Under the pieces are notes generated by a model. The model had not been told where the DNA came from. It did no database searches and was given only the letters and a program-made list of their open reading frames with translations. Below are positions 1,710-8,446 of a stretch of DNA of 8,446 nt, in pieces. Positions within the stretch are counted from its first letter, which is position 1, and each line of letters starts with the position of its first letter. The stretch lies in the IMG/VR virus record IMGVR_UViG_2740892235_000006; one strand, given 5' to 3'. Source of the DNA: a virus (Duplodnaviria; Heunggongvirae; Uroviricota; Caudoviricetes). The translations under genes were made by a program, and so were the position numbers.

Positions 1710-2180
1710 CGACCACCGCGATTGACATACATCGGCGTTTCGGTGGTGTCTTCTTCGGAAATTTTCCCGCGGTTAGTCGGGCGAACATATGAGAGTTTGT
1801 GTTTGATTTTCACACGGTTCTCATCAAATGGTTCGATTTCCAGGTTGAGTGAGACCTTACCTTTGGTTTTCGTGTTCATCACACCTGAAGCGACTTCACT
1901 GAGAACTGCGCCGATTTTGGTTTCAAATACGCCGCCGTCCAGCTCCCCGATAAATGCCTGCACATCNNNNNNNNNNGACATATGAGAGTTTGTGTTTGAT
2001 TTTCACACGGTTCTCATCAAACGGTTCGATTTCCAGATTGAGTGAGACCTTCCCTTTGGTTTTCGTGTTCATCACACCGGAAGCGACCTCACTGAGAACT
2101 GCGCCGATTTTGGTTTCAAATACGCCGCCGTCCAGCTCCCCGATAAATGCCTGCACATCAGTACTGCGTTCGCTAGCCAT
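1625..2180 (-). CDS. Phage hypothetical protein, about 120 aa once the duplicated tile is collapsed; interrupted by the N10 gap at 1967-1976
   Basis: ATG is the reverse complement of 2178-2180, with SD GAGGAG 7 nt upstream. Stop is the reverse complement of 1625-1627. Protein reads MASERSTDVQAFIGELDGGVFETKIGAVLSEVASGVMNTKTKGKVSLNLEIEPFDENRVKIKHKLSYVRPTNRGKISEEDTTETPMYVNRGGRLTILQEDQGQLLTLAGEPDGKLRAAGR. Segment 1978-2159 repeats 1785-1966, and a second allelic 3' end lies at 1512-1596. Confidence 0.75.
1785..2159. repeat. Two overlapping tiles (1785-1966, 1978-2159) around the N10 gap at 1967-1976
   Basis: Direct comparison; a handful of substitutions. Confidence 0.9.
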
Positions 2181-2228
2181 TTTGCTGCTCCTCATCATAT
2201 CGACCCTGCAAGGTCGGTTGGTTTCTCC

Positions 2229-2317
2229 ACAAAACAGAGAAGAACACCTGCGGTGGCAGCCGCCCGGATGGATTGGGTTATGAGCCCGTCGCCCGGTGAT
2301 GCTCTTCTCTGTTTTGT
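2229..2317. repeat. 16-bp inverted repeat (15 of 16 match), acaaaacagagaagaa at 2229-2244 and ctcttctctgttttgt at 2302-2317, with a 57-bp GC-rich spacer
   Basis: Seen directly; it abuts the terminator U-tract and lies in the 5' leader of the 120-aa gene. Confidence 0.6.
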
Positions 2318-2363
2318 AAAAAGAGCGGTACCAGCCGGAAGCAAGTGTACAAACTGGTACCGC
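2316..2363 (-). terminator. Candidate rho-independent terminator on the leftward transcript, upstream of the 120-aa gene
   Basis: Perfect 10-bp inverted repeat gcggtaccag (2325-2334) and ctggtaccgc (2354-2363) with a 19-nt loop. On the minus-strand RNA the 3' arm is followed directly by UCUUUUUAC (reverse complement of 2316-2324). Confidence 0.5.
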
Positions 2364-2786
2364 CAAAGCAGTGGCTGTTGTGGTGGGGTTGTCACTCAGG
2401 CGTATGGTCAACCTGACAATCCGGTGTCCTCAACGGGGAAAGAGTAACCCCGCCATACTTACCGCCGCGCCATTTCGCGGATTACCACAACGCTGAGAGC
2501 ACTTAGCCAGTTACGGCACCACACTTTGTCGTGGTTCCATAAATGCCCTCATCGTTGCACCCTGGTCTCTTCCCAGGTGTCAAACCGAACCGCCACGCTG
2601 GTTAGGCGTCTTATCAGCATCATCATTGACTTGCACATTCCGGCTACCTGGTTTGTTTGCCCGAGCAAGGAGTGGATTGTCCCCTTTAACGTCCCCAGAC
2701 CGCTAACGACGCATGTGCCATACGCCGTGTTACAACCAAATTTTGTTAGGACCTTGTTTGTTGGTCTGGAAAGAAAGATAAAATGA

Positions 2787-2834
2787 AATTGCGCATTATG
2801 CAAGTGTTTTGTTGCGAGATGCGCAATATGATGG
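2787..2834. promoter_or_regulatory. Candidate left operator region (OL-like)
   Basis: Shares motifs with the cI-cro intergenic region: TTGCGCA (2789-2795 versus 3616-3622) and the exact 9-mer CGCAATATG (2822-2830 versus 3653-3661). Contains the palindrome TTGCG-N5-CGCAA at 2812-2826. No clean -35/-10 pair could be resolved. Confidence 0.45.
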
Positions 2835-2840
2835 GTGATG

Positions 2841-2860
2841 AAAAGCCACCTTCTGGTGGC
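2841..2860 (-). terminator. Candidate intrinsic terminator just downstream of the repressor gene
   Basis: Stem gccacc (2845-2850) and ggtggc (2855-2860) with loop ttct. On the minus-strand RNA the stem is followed by UUUU (reverse complement of 2841-2844). It starts 22 nt past the repressor stop. Confidence 0.45.
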
Positions 2861-2881
2861 TAATTGATGAGGAGGTCGGGG

Positions 2882-3574
2882 TTAATTGTGTCGCTTAAGG
2901 GTTTGTGACTGACTGATTAAGACCTTCCCAAAGACCATAAACCGGTGTTCGTTTTCGCTGGTAATTCCCCATTCACGGTAAATCTGGTTATCAGAAATCA
3001 CCAGTAGTTTGTCAGGTATCATTTGCAGTCGTTTGACATAAATTTTATCATCAAAACCAAACACATAGATACCATCCCCATCAAACTGATTGATACTGAT
3101 ATCAACGAAGATGAGATCTCCTGGCTCAATGGTTGGACACATACTGTCCCCACGAACGTTGATAACTTTAATGTGATTGGCTGGTCGTCCTCCAAACATC
3201 GATACAGCATTATCAGTTATGTATTCAATGGCATGAATCACATCAATGACATCACCGCCCTGGATAAGGCCATTTCCCGCACTGGCACTGACATCCAGCA
3301 TTTCAATACGGAATACATCCTTCACCTGCGCAACATCCTCACCAGTACTGTTTTTACATACAGTATTACTTTTGAAGTCTGAGGTAAAGAGATCTGCAAT
3401 ATCAACACCTAAGCTCCTGGCAATATTACTCAGGGCTTGTTCAGTGAATTGTTTCTGCTTACCTGTTTCCAGGCGTGAGATATTCGCCGCATCCACTCCT
3501 ATTGCTTCAGCGAGATCGGCGATTTTCATGTTCTTCGCCTGGCGAAGTTGTCTGACTCGATTTCCTATGTTCAT
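2882..3574 (-). CDS. CI-type phage repressor, 230 aa: N-terminal XRE-family helix-turn-helix plus C-terminal S24 (LexA-like) autopeptidase
   Basis: N-terminus MNIGNRVRQLRQAKNMKIADLAEAIGVDAANISRLETGK is a typical HTH. C-terminal half carries the S24 signature GDSM (catalytic Ser) and a downstream YVKRL (Lys). It is divergent from the cro-like gene. No SD precedes the ATG. Confidence 0.9.
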   Translation of the reverse strand: MNIGNRVRQLRQAKNMKIADLAEAIGVDAANISRLETGKQKQFTEQALSNIARSLGVDIADLFTSDFKSNTVCKNSTGEDVAQVKDVFRIEMLDVSASAGNGLIQGGDVIDVIHAIEYITDNAVSMFGGRPANHIKVINVRGDSMCPTIEPGDLIFVDISINQFDGDGIYVFGFDDKIYVKRLQMIPDKLLVISDNQIYREWGITSENEHRFMVFGKVLISQSQTLKRHN

Positions 3575-3932: not shown

Positions 3933-4476
3933 GCATCACTGGAAAGTGGAAAAACAGCCTGAGTGGTACGTGAAAGCGGTCAGAAAAACTATCGCGGCGT
4001 TGCCGGGTGGTTACGCTGAAGCAGCTGAGTGGCTGGATGTAACAGAGAACGCTTTATTCAATCGCCTTCGTGCCGATGGCGATCAGATTTTCCCGCTGGG
4101 ATGGGCAATGATTTTACAGCGCGCGGCTGGCACTCACTACATTGCGGATGCTGTCGCACAGTCTGCTGATGGGGTGTTTGTATCGCTTCCTGACATTGAG
4201 GAAGTAGAGAACGCCGATATAAACCAGCGCCTGCTGGAAGTCATCGAACAGATCGGGAGTTACTCAAAGCAGATTCGTTCGGCAATCGAAGATGGGGTAG
4301 TGGAGCCACACGAGCAGACAGCAATGAATGATGAGTTGTATCTGTCAATTTCGAAGCTCCAGGAGCATGCGGCACTGGTCTACAAAATTTTCTGCGCTCC
4401 AGAAAAGAGTGACGCCCGCGAGTGTGCAGCTCCGGGCGTCGTGGCGTTTTGTGTCTGTGGAGAAACTAACGCATGA
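3925..4476 (+). CDS. CII-like phage regulatory protein (resembles the phage 186 CII / CP76 type), 183 aa, GTG start
   Basis: Strong SD AAGGAGG 6 nt upstream of GTG 3925. Position is immediately after cro. Segment ALFNRLRADGDQIFPLGWAMILQRAAGTHYIADAVAQ resembles the 186-CII-type family from memory. Confidence 0.65.
   Translation: MGKHHWKVEKQPEWYVKAVRKTIAALPGGYAEAAEWLDVTENALFNRLRADGDQIFPLGWAMILQRAAGTHYIADAVAQSADGVFVSLPDIEEVENADINQRLLEVIEQIGSYSKQIRSAIEDGVVEPHEQTAMNDELYLSISKLQEHAALVYKIFCAPEKSDARECAAPGVVAFCVCGETNA
4409..4457. terminator. GC-rich hairpin with pyrimidine/U-rich flanks on both strands inside the 3' end of the CII-like gene; candidate bidirectional terminator
   Basis: Stem gacgcccg (4411-4418) and cgggcgtc (4433-4440), extendable by 3 bp inside the loop. 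Minus-strand RNA continues ACUCUUUUCUG. Plus-strand RNA continues GGCGUUUUGUGUCU. Confidence 0.4.
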
Positions 4477-5636
4477 ACAGTTTAACGGCAAATAACCGTT
4501 TGTCGCAACAGCTGGTGGTCAGTGTCGCTGCACACCTGTTGTTACGGCATGAATGCAGATTACCAAATCACCTGGCTGTAAGTAACCACAGAGAACTTTA
4601 CCTGACTGTGGGGGGCGAGTTGTGCAGGAACTTAACCGCTGGTTTCGTGACGGAAGAGGACTTTATGTTCATGTTATTCGTTGGGAGCCAGAAACACAGC
4701 GCGTTATCTATCTTCGCAAAGACTACCCGCATGAGTGCTTTAGTCCTTTGTGGAAATTCAGGCGTGATTTTGTTGAGTGTGAAGGACCAGCAGCATATTG
4801 ATTCTGCAATTCCGGGACGTTACACTGTACCGGCACCTTATAAAGCGGGTGCCGGGATTGGCGTCCTGAAATTGATTACTGAGCATAACCGCGCTCATGC
4901 GGTTTTTTCGTGTCATGAGCATTGCTACGCCCAAATTATGGTGGGGCGTACAGGGCCGACTTCGGTCGGGCCGGGTTCGGTAGTCTCCGGTAACGCCAAC
5001 CCTGTACGTCTCACCACCTCTGTGATTGGCGTCCCATGTGGTGAGTTTTCTAAAAAACTGACTACCGGGGCTGTCACTATGACTACTCTCCCAACCCTCT
5101 CTCAACCTGAAATTGCCATCGTTGATGGTCAGGCTGTTACATCTTCTTTGGCTGTTGCTGACTTCTTCTCTAAACGTCATGACGATGTTCTGAAAAAGAT
5201 CCGCATTTTGGATTGTTCTCCAGAGTTTTGTGCCCGCAATTTTGCGGAGACATCAATTTTGGTACGCCAGCCCAACGGCGGTACTCGCAAACTTCCCTGC
5301 TATCAAATCACCCGCGACGGTTTTGCGTTTCTTGCCATGGGCTTCACTGGTAAACGTGCTGCCCGGTTCAAAGAGGCATACATCAACGCCTTTAACCTGA
5401 TGGAGAAACAGCTTTCAAAGCCCGCTGTACCGAGCGACGTTGCACATAACGCCAGCGTTCTCTGTTCCTACATTTCATCAATTCATCAGGTCTGGCTGCA
5501 GCAGCTTTATCCTATGTTGGCAAAAGCCGAATCTCCGCTGGCTGTTAGCTTATATGACTATATTAATGATGCTTCGGCGCTGGCCTGCCTCATAAATTTG
5601 TCGCTGAACCCTTCAGAGGCAAGGGGGCGCAAATGA
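4473..5636 (+). CDS. 387-aa ORF with a C-terminal Rha-family phage regulatory domain (residues about 203-387) and an N-terminal 200 aa of uncertain coding status
   Basis: ATG 4473 overlaps the CII-like stop (ATGA). The segment from M203 (ATG 5079), MTTLPTLSQPEIAIVDGQAVTSSLAVADFFSKRHDDVLKKIRIL...YQITRDGFAFLAMGFTGKRAARFKEAYINAFNLMEKQL, matches the Rha signature (FGKRHDNVLRDI-like, MGFTG). The upstream 600 nt is open in frame but rich in rare codons (tta, ggg, aga, agg). A G6 run at 4610-4615 connects to a second open frame. Confidence 0.6.
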   Translation: MNSLTANNRLSQQLVVSVAAHLLLRHECRLPNHLAVSNHRELYLTVGGELCRNLTAGFVTEEDFMFMLFVGSQKHSALSIFAKTTRMSALVLCGNSGVILLSVKDQQHIDSAIPGRYTVPAPYKAGAGIGVLKLITEHNRAHAVFSCHEHCYAQIMVGRTGPTSVGPGSVVSGNANPVRLTTSVIGVPCGEFSKKLTTGAVTMTTLPTLSQPEIAIVDGQAVTSSLAVADFFSKRHDDVLKKIRILDCSPEFCARNFAETSILVRQPNGGTRKLPCYQITRDGFAFLAMGFTGKRAARFKEAYINAFNLMEKQLSKPAVPSDVAHNASVLCSYISSIHQVWLQQLYPMLAKAESPLAVSLYDYINDASALACLINLSLNPSEARGRK

Positions 5637-6767: not shown

Positions 6768-8047
6768 TGAGTAATAAATATTGCCAGGCGCTGGTAGAAC
6801 TGCGGAACAAACCAGCCCATGAACTGAAGGAAGTGGGCGATCAGTGGCGCACGCCGGACAACATTTTCTGGGGAATTAACACCTTGTTTGGTCCGTTTGT
6901 TCTGGATCTGTTCACTGACGGTGATAACGCCAAATGTGCCGCGTATTACACGGCGGAAGACAACGCGCTGGCGCATGACTGGTCAGAACGTCTTGCGGAG
7001 CTTAAAGGTGCTGCCTTTGGTAATCCCCCATACAGCCGCGCCAGTCAGCATGAGGGGCAATACATCACCGGCATGCGTTACATCATGAAGCATGCCAGTG
7101 CCATGCGTGATAAAGGCGGGCGCTATGTTTTCCTGATTAAAGCTGCCACCAGCGAAGTGTGGTGGCCGGAAGATGCAGATCATATTGCTTTTATTCGCGG
7201 GCGTATTGGTTTTGAACTGCCTGTCTGGTTTATCCCGAAAGACGAGAAGCAGGTACCGACAGGCGCTTTCTTCGCTGGTGCTATTGCTGTTTTCGACAAG
7301 ACCTGGAAGGGACCGGCAATCAGCTACATCGGGCGCGATGAACTTGANNNNNNNNNNCAGAACGAAATAATTTTCTGGCGCGTCGTGAACGGTGTTTACG
7401 GAAAAGCAGCAAGCGGGCTGCATCAGGTGAAGAGTGGTATCTGTCAGGGAATTACGTGGGGGCTTAATGAGTAATAAATATTGCCAGGCGCTGGTGGAAC
7501 TACGGAACAAACCAGCCCATGAACTGAAGGAAGTGGGCGATCAGTGGCGCACGCCGGATAACATTTTCTGGGGAATTAACACCCTGTTTGGCCCGTTTGT
7601 TCTGGATCTGTTCACTGATGGTGATAACGCCAAATGTGCTGCGTATTACACGGCGGAAGACAACGCGCTGGCGCATGACTGGTCAGAACGTCTTGTGGAG
7701 CTTAAAGGTGCTGCCTTTGGTAATCCCCCATACAGCCGCGCCAGTCAGCATGAGGGGCAATACATCACTGGCATGCGTTACATCATGAAGCATGCCAGTG
7801 CCATGCGTGATAAGGGCGGGCGCTATGTTTTCCTGATCAAAGCTGCCACCAGCGAAGTGTGGTGGCCGGAAGATGCAGATCATATTGCTTTTATTCGCGG
7901 GCGTATTGGTTTTGAACTGCCTGCCTGGTTTATCCCGAAAGACGAGAAGCAGGTGCCGACAGGAGCGTTCTTCGCTGGTGCTATTGCTGTTTTCGACAAG
8001 ACCTGGAAGGGACCGGCAATCAGCTACATCGGGCGCGATGAACTTGA
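6752..8047. repeat. Two near-identical methyltransferase tiles (6752-7347 and 7452-8047) with different upstream contexts, separated by the N10 gap at 7348-7357
   Basis: Identity begins at the shared string ttacgtgggggcttaatgagtaataaata; sequence further upstream differs completely between the two copies. Confidence 0.85.
6767..7347 (+). CDS. Phage Dam-type N6-adenine DNA methyltransferase, copy 1, truncated at the N10 gap 7348-7357
   Basis: NPPY catalytic motif (GNPPYS) encoded at 7022-7033. Reads MSNKYCQALVELRNKPAHELKEVGDQWRTPDNIFWGINTLFGPFVLDLFTDGDNAKCAAYY. Typical nin-region position after the replication gene. Confidence 0.8.
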
Positions 8048-8120: not shown

Positions 8121-8446
8121 CGACGTTAACTCAATGCCAGCAGCAGGTGCTGGATATGCTGATTTCTTACCAGCAAGAACGTGGCTTCCCGCCAACTAAT
8201 CAGGAGGTGGCAACCATGCTGGGATACCGTTCAGTGAATGCAGCGGTGGAGCATCTTCGCGCACTGGAGAAAAAAGGCGTCATCACGATAAANNNNNNNN
8301 NNTCAGAAAGAGCGTGGCTTTCCGCCAACCAATCAGGAGGTGGCAACCATGCTGGGATACCGTTCGGTGAATGCAGCGGTGGAGCATCTTCGCGCACTGG
8401 AGAAAAAAGGCGTCATCACGATAAAGCGTGGCGTGGCCCGGGGGAT
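8117..8446 (+). CDS. LexA N-terminal DNA-binding-domain-like (winged helix) protein, partial; runs off the window end and crosses the N10 gap at 8293-8302
   Basis: ATG 8117 overlaps the methyltransferase stop (ATGA). [59 protein letters not shown] aligns by eye to the LexA N-terminus ([58 protein letters not shown]). Segment 8303-8425 repeats 8170-8292 with substitutions and extends to ...KRGVARG. Confidence 0.65.

Follow-up and report, generated by a model that had tools for sequence, protein, structure and literature searches.

DicF, among the oldest known bacterial small RNAs (sRNAs), is found as a 53-nt form with an RNase E-dependent 5' end and as a 190-nt form with an RNase III-dependent one (Ragunathan et al. 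2023, PMC10448788), the longer of which has so far been treated as a processing intermediate. Already known, too, are the processing of sRNAs from operon transcripts and a 'dicF-like region' annotated in phage P1. Another described system, the put element of phage HK022, consists of two stem-loops with a total of ~70 nt (PMC9378689), and a put-like mechanism has been suggested for phage LLS (PMC12315714; 2025, Genome Research). Here, we examine a stretch of 8,446 nucleotides of Caudoviricetes DNA (IMG/VR record IMGVR_UViG_2740892235_000006; hereafter, the window) and, in particular, the ~700 bp (positions 2181-2881) that separate a cI-like repressor gene from the leftward gene yfdP. An original prediction, made from the sequence alone, had seen in this gap a long structured leader or small RNA with an internal terminator, and had proposed an RNA-based antitermination element of the HK022 put type or attenuation of the left operon.

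The window represents the immunity region of an Escherichia coli lambdoid prophage (mEp460 / 2H10 / cdtI / Stx2a_WGPS2 type), and the gap is probably the ~590-nt untranslated leader of its repressor-controlled leftward early operon, read from the minus strand in a prophage devoid of N. From 5' to 3' the leader is composed of a conserved structured RNA (module A), a long duplex (stem S), a four-helix junction with a pseudoknot (domain B), a variable 'seed' with a DicF-type terminator, a second long stem (hairpin D) and the yfdP ribosome-binding site (Table 1). The strand is independently fixed by the orientation of homologous elements, which are in sense orientation both in the dicB operon (Qin prophage of E. 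coli K-12) and in the ban operon of phage P1, in the latter 45 nt after the annotated C1-controlled Pban promoter. We favour the view that the leader is made as a non-coding precursor, from which processing would release an sRNA of the DicF family, and that its terminator attenuates the left operon. The anticipated structured leader, with a small-RNA unit ending at the internal terminator, is supported by covariation, by the absence of coding and by the terminator itself (at 2318). Neither Rfam nor the searchable literature describes the pseudoknotted cloverleaf of domain B, the module A family, stem S, or a cassette in which tRNAs and tRNA-shaped domains are interchangeable before a DicF-type terminator; likewise, searchable papers hold no structure upstream of DicF, no tRNA-like DicF precursor and none of the conserved sequence strings.

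The hairpins listed in the original prediction proved to be real, and to be helices of one conserved minus-strand RNA: in domain B, gtatgg/ccatac forms the pseudoknot, cgggg/ccccg helix P4 and ccgcg/cgcgg helix P2. Copies of domain B were harvested from one-genome-per-species contigs (Escherichia, Shigella, Citrobacter, Trabulsiella, Serratia symbiotica, Erwinia tracheiphila and Izhakiella) and from viral contigs (77 distinct sequences); among complete E. coli genomes it is present in 4261 of 5426 (~79%), with up to eight copies each, and is never annotated. A covariation analysis of homologous regions, the check that had been proposed for this gap, recovered covariation in module A, domain B and hairpin D. 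For domain B (41 distinct sequences) 94.7% of the cells were paired and 13 of the 35 pairs had changed on both sides, while moving the 3' partners by 1-3 columns left 32-57% paired. Within the pseudoknot one pair covaries (U-A to C-G in phage P1, with U-G intermediates) and the other bases are invariant, a pattern in which covariation is weakly testable, as the harvesting patterns fixed most of these bases, and which independently harvested copies share. The fold energy of domain B alone did not exceed that of shuffled controls (z = -0.98; z = -3.3 for the fold of the whole leader), hence its support is comparative and not energetic. Its covariance model finds a single copy in the window (137 bits), and no Rfam family matched it, be it in the window at the gathering threshold, in the region at E <= 10, or in the P1 and phiV10 homologues.

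Domain B ties the leader to DicF. Window positions 2491->2385 are ~93% identical to the K-12 Qin sequence between ydfC and dicB (BLAST, complete E. coli genomes), in which the domain B copy ends 25 nt 5' of the Rfam DicF match. Counting 190 nt back from the Qin terminator leads to a point 1-3 nt before the first helix of domain B, and the sequence in Fig. S1B of PMC10448788, which maps the 190-nt DicF 5' end, contains the domain. Judged by this sequence correspondence, domain B accounts for two-thirds of the 190-nt precursor of DicF, at its 5' side. The rest of the DicF locus architecture is present in the window as well: domain B is followed by a single-stranded stretch, a GGCGG/CCGCC-based terminator and a U run.

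The internal terminator that had been placed near 2316 is real, a 12-bp GC-rich hairpin whose UCUUUUU tail ends at 2318; a simple hairpin-plus-T-run scan missed it because its loop exceeds 8 nt, but detected the homologous terminator of phage phiV10. DicF, window-type and phiV10 cassettes all keep the frame UUGGCGG..GUUU..CCGCC-CUUUUUA unchanged, with compensatory changes in the upper stem. In the window, the lower stem and flanks (UUUGGCGGUA.CAGUUU...CCGC-UCUUUUUAC) match DicF and the upper stem is altered compensatorily; its seed and loop sequences differ from those of DicF. The seed position, which in Qin is the DicF 5' region, is hypervariable between cassettes and has conserved flanks.

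Qin dicF and the window are alike in the succession of domain B, single-stranded seed and GGCGG/CCGCC-based terminator, in belonging to a repressor-controlled early operon and in having a long stem before the next gene. They differ in that next gene (dicB in Qin, yfdP in the window), in the seed and upper terminator stem, and in their setting, as the DicF unit of Qin comes after ydfABC and that of the window lies in the PL leader behind module A. In phage P1 the flagged 'dicF-like region' is a part of domain B at the start of the ban operon (in the P1/P7 records domain B lies 45 nt after the Pban -10 and is followed by an intrinsic terminator), but the seed and terminator (GCCCAUCUUCGGGUGGGC-U6) are unrelated to those of the window, and module A is situated downstream, between tRNA-Ile and ban.

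Module A, too, recurs in many genomes and is devoid of annotation. The window sequence 2741->2564 shares 79% identity with the phage P1 stretch between tRNA-Ile and ban (2.3 kb into the ban operon), and unannotated copies were found in phiV10 / epsilon15-like podoviruses (Uetakevirus; in an island between the terminase and portal genes), in D6 and mEp390, in Klebsiella, Enterobacter and Salmonella phages, and in 1375 of the 5426 E. coli genomes. The consensus fold, derived from ten diverse copies and with an H-type pseudoknot added by hand, contains 34 pairs, nine of which changed on both sides, and leaves 97.6% of the cells paired (28-41% in slid controls). Its loops UAUGGCACAUG, GUAGCCGGAAUGUGCAAG and GAAGAGA are invariant, and none of its copies in the window, P1 and phiV10 matched an Rfam family. 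That loops and pseudoknots hardly vary, in module A as in domain B, suggests a specific ligand or partner.

The tRNA-bearing relatives of the leader show what domain B replaces. In phiV10, module A is succeeded by an 18-nt leader identical to that of the window (CUAAGUGCUCUCAGCGUU), by a genuine tRNA-Arg(UCU) exactly where domain B begins in the window and, after a ~45-nt spacer, by a terminator of the same type (GGCGG...CCGCC-CUUUUUAC); BUCT711 and SPN1S likewise hold tRNA-Arg(UCU) between this leader and this terminator type. Altogether, module A and the leader precede domain B in 35 unique cassettes, tRNA-Arg(UCU) in 27 and other domains in ~21, and the GGCGG/CCGCC terminator was detected downstream in most of them. 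The other cargo that was read out (mEp460, Tyrion and L157 types) is 110-190 nt long, closed by the same GUUGUGG/CCACAAC stem, and cloverleaf-like, with a GC hairpin at the 5' end and a second hairpin just before CCACAAC. Considering that it occupies the same slot in collinear cassettes and forms a cloverleaf with a 7-bp stem, domain B is the positional equivalent of a tRNA and has the same topology.

The phiV10 cassette (L247, 2380-3010, plus strand) runs antisense to the structural genes between terminase and portal, and has a second terminator (2982-2997) after the first, ahead of an Sf6 gp66-like gene; it appears to behave as an independent 'moron' transcription unit. In phage P1 (L005, 3100-3610, plus strand), ~450 nt of the ban operon between the post-domain-B terminator and tRNA-Asn are unannotated, and drew weak sub-threshold Rfam matches to the permuted and beta transfer-messenger RNA models (E = 0.03-0.3).

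Such a slot raises the possibility, which we consider a minor though not a negligible one, that domain B and the other cargo closed by GUUGUGG/CCACAAC are tRNA mimics with a function of their own (decoy or anti-defence RNAs), recognised by RNase P or RNase E, by modification enzymes or by tRNA-targeting defences, and that the sRNA is the equivalent of a 3' trailer. The four-helix junction with its 7-bp closing stem, the exact tRNA-Arg(UCU) slot (with an identical leader upstream and a terminator of the same type downstream), and the sister domains with the same closing stem and 5'- and 3'-proximal hairpins all point in this direction, as does a P5 loop (CAGGUUGA..CCUG) reminiscent of a T arm. 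The same window also encodes a C4 RNA, and the C4 precursor of P1/P7 is a substrate of RNase P. Yet ARAGORN found no tRNA in the window and Rfam none in 2100-2960 at E <= 10, so that both miss domain B; it has no conserved CCA, no 7-nt anticodon-like loop and no D-loop/T-loop signature, and the sharing of the slot could reflect mere recombination at conserved flanks. Moreover, published work makes the 5' end of the 190-nt DicF dependent on RNase III and not on RNase P (PMC10448788).

The reading of the leader as an sRNA precursor has its own parallels among tRNA-linked small RNAs. In E. coli (3'ETS-leuZ), in phage T4 (stable RNAs species 1 and 2) and in the herpesvirus MHV68 (tRNA-miRNA units), one transcript joins a tRNA, or a module of tRNA shape, to a small regulatory RNA, which is freed by processing. 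The phiV10-type cassettes, with a true tRNA-Arg ahead of the same terminator-sRNA scaffold, resemble them, whereas the window holds a non-tRNA cloverleaf with a pseudoknot in the place of the tRNA.

Processing is further suggested by the two long stems of the leader. At its 3' end module A carries a conserved tail (CAACGAUGAGAGCAUUU) with complementarity to the leader sequence AAGUGCUCUCAGCGUUGUG, and the resulting stem S is predicted in the window, phiV10, SPN1S, BUCT711, Tyrion, Citrobacter and the P1-like element L157, where it is kept with a wholly different sequence; it also appears in the minimum-free-energy fold of the whole leader. Of the seven 5'-strand nucleotides of helix P1, six are engaged in stem S (in the tRNA cassettes, the first three of the tRNA), so that the cargo can close its own stem only once stem S has been cut or has opened. 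Module A is absent from Qin, where the corresponding flank pairs with sequence that lies downstream of the DicF terminator. Hairpin D, ~35 nt 5' of the yfdP Shine-Dalgarno sequence, is kept in Erwinia, Izhakiella and Serratia as well as in E. coli, and shows compensatory changes among them. In size and shape the two stems resemble RNase III substrates and may well be processed as such, a reading that draws on the published RNase III dependence at the DicF locus.

Long stems between the units of an early transcript, just upstream of the ribosome-binding site of the first gene, are familiar from the RNase III site of the lambda N leader and from rRNA-type processing stems. Those of the window differ in that they flank non-coding RNAs, and no N gene follows. 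Serratia symbiotica (L011, 6440-6564, minus strand) has the apex of hairpin D in the reverse orientation compared with E. coli and Erwinia (GGGTTATGAGCCCATCGCC versus GGCGACGGGCTCATAACCC), which looks like an inversion between the 20-bp arms.

We propose that most PL transcripts would stop at the terminator (~2318) and give a ~450-nt RNA, which could then be cut by RNase III in stem S and by RNase E in the AU-rich seed region. Cleavage would free the module A RNA, a ~175-nt species comprising domain B and the sRNA (the equivalent of the 190-nt DicF RNA), and a ~60-nt DicF-family sRNA, which would act in trans through its new seed. Polymerases that read through would express yfdP-yfdQ...xis-int, with hairpin D separating the yfdP mRNA from the sRNA, and the tRNA-shaped domain B may provide the attached sRNA with a handle for folding, processing or stability, or with a protein-binding domain. 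Since only the readthrough fraction would express the left-operon genes in this scheme, the terminator would double as an attenuator, and attenuation of the left operon, as suggested by the original prediction, is a reasonable reading.

Several points weigh against the precursor reading. The Rfam DicF model (RF00039) did not match the window, either at its gathering score or with the limit relaxed to E <= 10 (the K-12 control scored 76.7 bits), hence the label 'DicF family' rests on position and on the shared terminator scaffold; domain B, as said, escapes tRNA detection. An efficient terminator would still demand a way to express xis and int from PL, for which the model invokes leakiness, and near-invariant loops and pseudoknots, such as those of modules A and B, are not an obvious requirement of a simple role in processing or stability. 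Lastly, for this phage the promoter, the transcript 3' end and the sites of cleavage are predictions, and so are the efficiency of termination, the trans targets of the sRNA and the binding partners of the modules.

An attenuating terminator downstream of a conserved fold also brings to mind a riboswitch, in which domain B would be a ligand-sensing aptamer that controls the terminator. This we consider very unlikely. It is true that in every context examined an intrinsic terminator follows, at a distance of 12-40 nt, a pseudoknotted junction of ~115 nt whose unpaired nucleotides are highly conserved, and that stem S and helix P1 are mutually exclusive, though on the 5' side. Between the 3' strand of the would-be aptamer (helix P1) and the terminator, though, no conserved alternative pairing was seen, the GGCGG likeness of domain B to the terminator stem is absent in phage P1, and domain B is both swapped with tRNAs or other domains before the same terminator and paired with unrelated terminators. 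No known riboswitch class was matched (Rfam, E <= 10). Classical switching between helix P1 and the terminator was considered separately and dropped, as no conserved complementarity was found.

The original prediction was right that the gap holds no N-like gene: complete relatives have none annotated, either in the left or in the right operon, and the leader has no conserved open reading frame (ORF). Its suggestion of an HK022 put-type element, in contrast, did not survive, as no feature tested (sequence, covariance model, fold or copy number) fits. We located putL in HK022 (the numbering matches PMC9378689) and compared it by BLAST and covariance model: putL and the window share chance 9-mers only (E = 1.7), and the domain B model has no match in the HK022 immunity region. 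The likeness is confined to a structured RNA in the early-operon leader of an N-less lambdoid phage, upstream of terminators; put is formed by two ~35-nt stem-loops, whereas the window has a four-helix pseudoknotted junction and a ~195-nt pseudoknotted RNA. The pairing of operons seen with put is lacking too, as domain B is present once, and the 4.8 kb of rightward operon covered by the window hold no copy. Considering the absence of sequence similarity and of a model match, the different fold and the single copy, membership of the put family is rejected.

A cis-acting RNA antiterminator need not belong to that family, and module A, domain B or both might work in a put-like or Bacillus EAR-like manner, the nascent fold binding RNA polymerase so as to allow readthrough of the sRNA terminator and of Rho sites, in replacement of N. 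Position gives a mixed picture: module A lies ~35 nt after the predicted PL start and is promoter-proximal in PL leaders and in the phiV10 cassette, and domain B is so in the ban operon (~45 nt after the Pban -10), but domain B stands behind three genes in Qin, and module A 2.3 kb into the P1 operon. Both modules come before an intrinsic terminator, past which transcription has to continue if the genes are to be expressed, they combine freely with different terminators and cargo (which fits an action independent of the terminator), and their invariant loops and pseudoknotted folds hint at a macromolecular partner. The lack of an annotated N-like gene in the early operons of complete relatives has its counterpart in phage LLS, another lambdoid without N, with a Q protein closest to the 2H10 one (PMC12315714). 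On the other hand, the modules have neither sequence nor structural similarity to putL and the single-copy pattern described above, and a strong antiterminator directly upstream would defeat a terminated sRNA, yet terminated DicF is seen in Qin (PMC10448788). In the left-operon genes of the homologous phage PhiR47_1, a hairpin-plus-T-run scan (which misses the sRNA terminator itself) found, besides the cI terminator and the one that closes the operon, a single further candidate on the operon strand, with a 7-bp stem and a weak T tail, hence a need for processive antitermination is not evident. Taken together, we regard antitermination by these modules as improbable.

A boxA-boxB nut reading of the leader (GUGCUCUCAGCG) was also put aside, its weak boxA likeness being better explained as a strand of stem S, though a part in NusB/NusE binding is still conceivable. 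The likeness concerns positions 2486-2504 (minus strand), where AAGUGCUCUCAGCGUU resembles the boxA sequence UGCUCUUUA; the Trabulsiella version reads AUGCUCUUUCCG.

A broader formulation joins these alternatives: modules A and B would be two new classes of structured phage RNA with a specific macromolecular partner, domain B and its sister cargo domains being tRNA-shaped RNAs that evolved in a tRNA slot. They would serve either protein-free early antitermination in N-less lambdoid and P1-type phages or as tRNA-mimic decoys against tRNA-targeting host defences, with DicF sRNAs as their 3' trailers. We put this forward tentatively, as a rather unlikely account.

As for proteins, the observation that the ~700 bp between the repressor gene (end at 2882) and yfdP contain no convincing ORF was correct. 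The two frames that had been singled out as non-protein-like, 2526-2786 (plus strand) and 2549-2803 (minus strand), exist mechanically and have no Pfam match, and neither do 2195-2395 (minus strand) and 2253-2447 (plus strand). In a six-frame census of stop codons, no homologue of module A had an open frame on every strand (the phage P1 copy has stops in all six frames), and the window copy of domain B has stops in six of six; a frame comparison found that the reading frame shifts between genera in the terminator and hairpin D. Thus, Pfam, the census and the cross-genus comparison agree in giving no conserved protein in any one frame, and the gap is indeed empty in the sense first described, its ORFs being mechanical, unmatched and not kept. 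With covariation present as well, neither of the two sequence-level outcomes that would have spoken against the original prediction was observed.

An unrecognised small protein gene (e.g., for an N-like peptide) is by these data largely refuted, and we hold it to be highly improbable. Besides the mechanical ORFs, and the 'hypothetical proteins' annotated here in some relatives, its case consists of an arginine-rich 36-aa peptide encoded in the domain B slot of mEp460 and of a Shine-Dalgarno sequence with an ATG in the terminator loop of Erwinia-type cassettes. No frame is open across homologues, though, and frames part after a few codons; the lengths of insertions and deletions are not multiples of three, the substitutions are compensatory for RNA helices, Pfam has no match, and the phiV10 copy of the leader runs straight into a tRNA. 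The Erwinia-type loops belong to a longer terminator hairpin, present downstream of domain B in Erwinia, Izhakiella, Trabulsiella and Serratia (L022, L023, L020 and L011), in which GGAG...ATGTTCTACCG (Shine-Dalgarno and ATG, 'MFYR') is conserved. As a gene start this 'MFYR' was rejected, for no single frame continues from it and the sequences diverge after about four codons.

We see the main significance of these results in the view they give of DicF: the 5' two-thirds of its 190-nt form appear as an autonomous, covarying, pseudoknotted cloverleaf that is also present in P1/P7 and in several other enterobacterial genera, and that heads an sRNA family with interchangeable seeds. A cassette made of a structured RNA (module A), a processing stem, a tRNA or tRNA-like cargo and a terminator-sRNA is common to lambdoid, P1-like and phiV10-like phages, in regions that annotation pipelines leave blank or fill with spurious hypothetical proteins. 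Its description makes testable how N-less lambdoid phages pass their early terminators, why temperate phages carry lone tRNAs, and which role the long DicF has.

Table 1. Coordinates and defining sequences of the leader, of its surroundings in the window and of the alternative cargo domains in related records.
Feature	Position	Strand	Sequence or detail	Basis
cI-like repressor ORF	2882-3574	minus	Peptidase_S24 and helix-turn-helix	Pfam
cro-like and CII-like genes	beyond the repressor	plus		ORF list and Pfam
Intrinsic terminator of the cI-like repressor gene	2836..2861	minus	AGCCACCAGAAGGUGGCU + UUUUC	read from sequence
OL-like operator pair	within 2775..2832	minus	TTGCGCATTATGCAA (2789-2803) and TTGCGAGATGCGCAA (2812-2826)	repeats common to the cI-cro intergenic region
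PL promoter (predicted)	-35 2803->2798; -10 2780->2775; start ~2768	minus	TTGCAT, 17-nt spacer, TATCTT	by eye
Module A	2539..2733	minus	~195-nt conserved structured RNA, H-type pseudoknot	homology and covariation
Stem S	2486..2559	minus	~20-bp duplex enclosing a small hairpin	predicted pairing, seven lineages
Stem S, 5' strand (module A tail)	2559->2541	minus	UGCAACGAUGAGGGCAUUU	predicted
Stem S, 3' strand (leader)	2504->2486	minus	AAGUGCUCUCAGCGUUGUG	predicted
Domain B	2377..2491	minus	four-helix junction and pseudoknot	homology, covariation, covariance model
Domain B, P1		minus	GUUGUGG / CCACAAC, 7 bp	comparative fold
Domain B, P2		minus	CCGCG / CGCGG	comparative fold
Domain B, P3		minus	CGGU / ACCG, encloses P4	comparative fold
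Domain B, P4 (inside P3)		minus	CGGGG / CCCCG	comparative fold
Domain B, P5		minus	GAUUGUCA / UGACAACC	comparative fold
Domain B, pseudoknot		minus	GUAUGG (P3-P4 internal loop) with CCAUAC (P5 loop)	comparative fold
Variable single-stranded 'seed'	2365..2376	minus	AGCCACUGCUUU	between domain B and terminator
DicF-type intrinsic terminator / sRNA body	2318..2364	minus	GGCGGUACCAG-loop-CUGGUACCGC + UCUUUUU	12-bp stem, -22.5 kcal/mol
Hairpin D	2228..2318	minus	21-bp stem, conserved branched apex	-46.4 kcal/mol, z = -6.5
Small hairpin ahead of the yfdP start	within 2178..2218	minus	CGACCUUGCAGGGUCG	hairpin scan
yfdP Shine-Dalgarno	2193->2188	minus	GAGGAG, 7 nt 5' of ATG	read from sequence
yfdP start codon	2180->2178	minus	ATG	mEp460 annotation and Erwinia/Izhakiella homologues
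Alternative cargo, L003 (mEp460)	~2720-2860	minus		domain B slot
Alternative cargo, L250 (Tyrion)	~2600-2790	plus		domain B slot
Alternative cargo, L157	~500-620	plus		domain B slot

Upstream of the leader, operator repeats at 2783-2832 recur in the cI-cro intergenic region (repeat families D3, D4, I3, I9 and I10), and the two palindromes to the left of the repressor terminator conform to the usual OL/OR arrangement. The hexamers assigned to PL fall below the threshold of a consensus promoter scan. The repressor-gene terminator is the same hairpin that a terminator scan finds in PhiR47_1, and it is an annotated terminator in SfII.

Elsewhere in the window, Rfam at the gathering threshold returned only two families, isrK (4833-4909, plus strand, 59 bits) and the C4 antisense RNA (4934-5021, plus strand, 82 bits), along with tRNAs in the relatives. 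The two lie within a ~600-nt gap between the CII-like gene and a Rha/antirepressor ORF (ATG near 5079), a layout that resembles the antirepressor control of P1/P7 immI and of the Gifsy-1 IsrK type; the mechanical ORF 4473-5636, which spans both RNAs, is probably not real upstream of ~5079. The window also contains eight runs of ten N (624-633, 781-790, 1190-1199, 1281-1290, 1598-1607, 1967-1976, 7349-7358 and 8294-8303), each followed by a near-duplicate of earlier sequence (yfdQ, yfdP, a methyltransferase gene or a LexA-like gene), and thus looks like a series of stitched alternative contigs or assembly paths rather than true tandem duplications.

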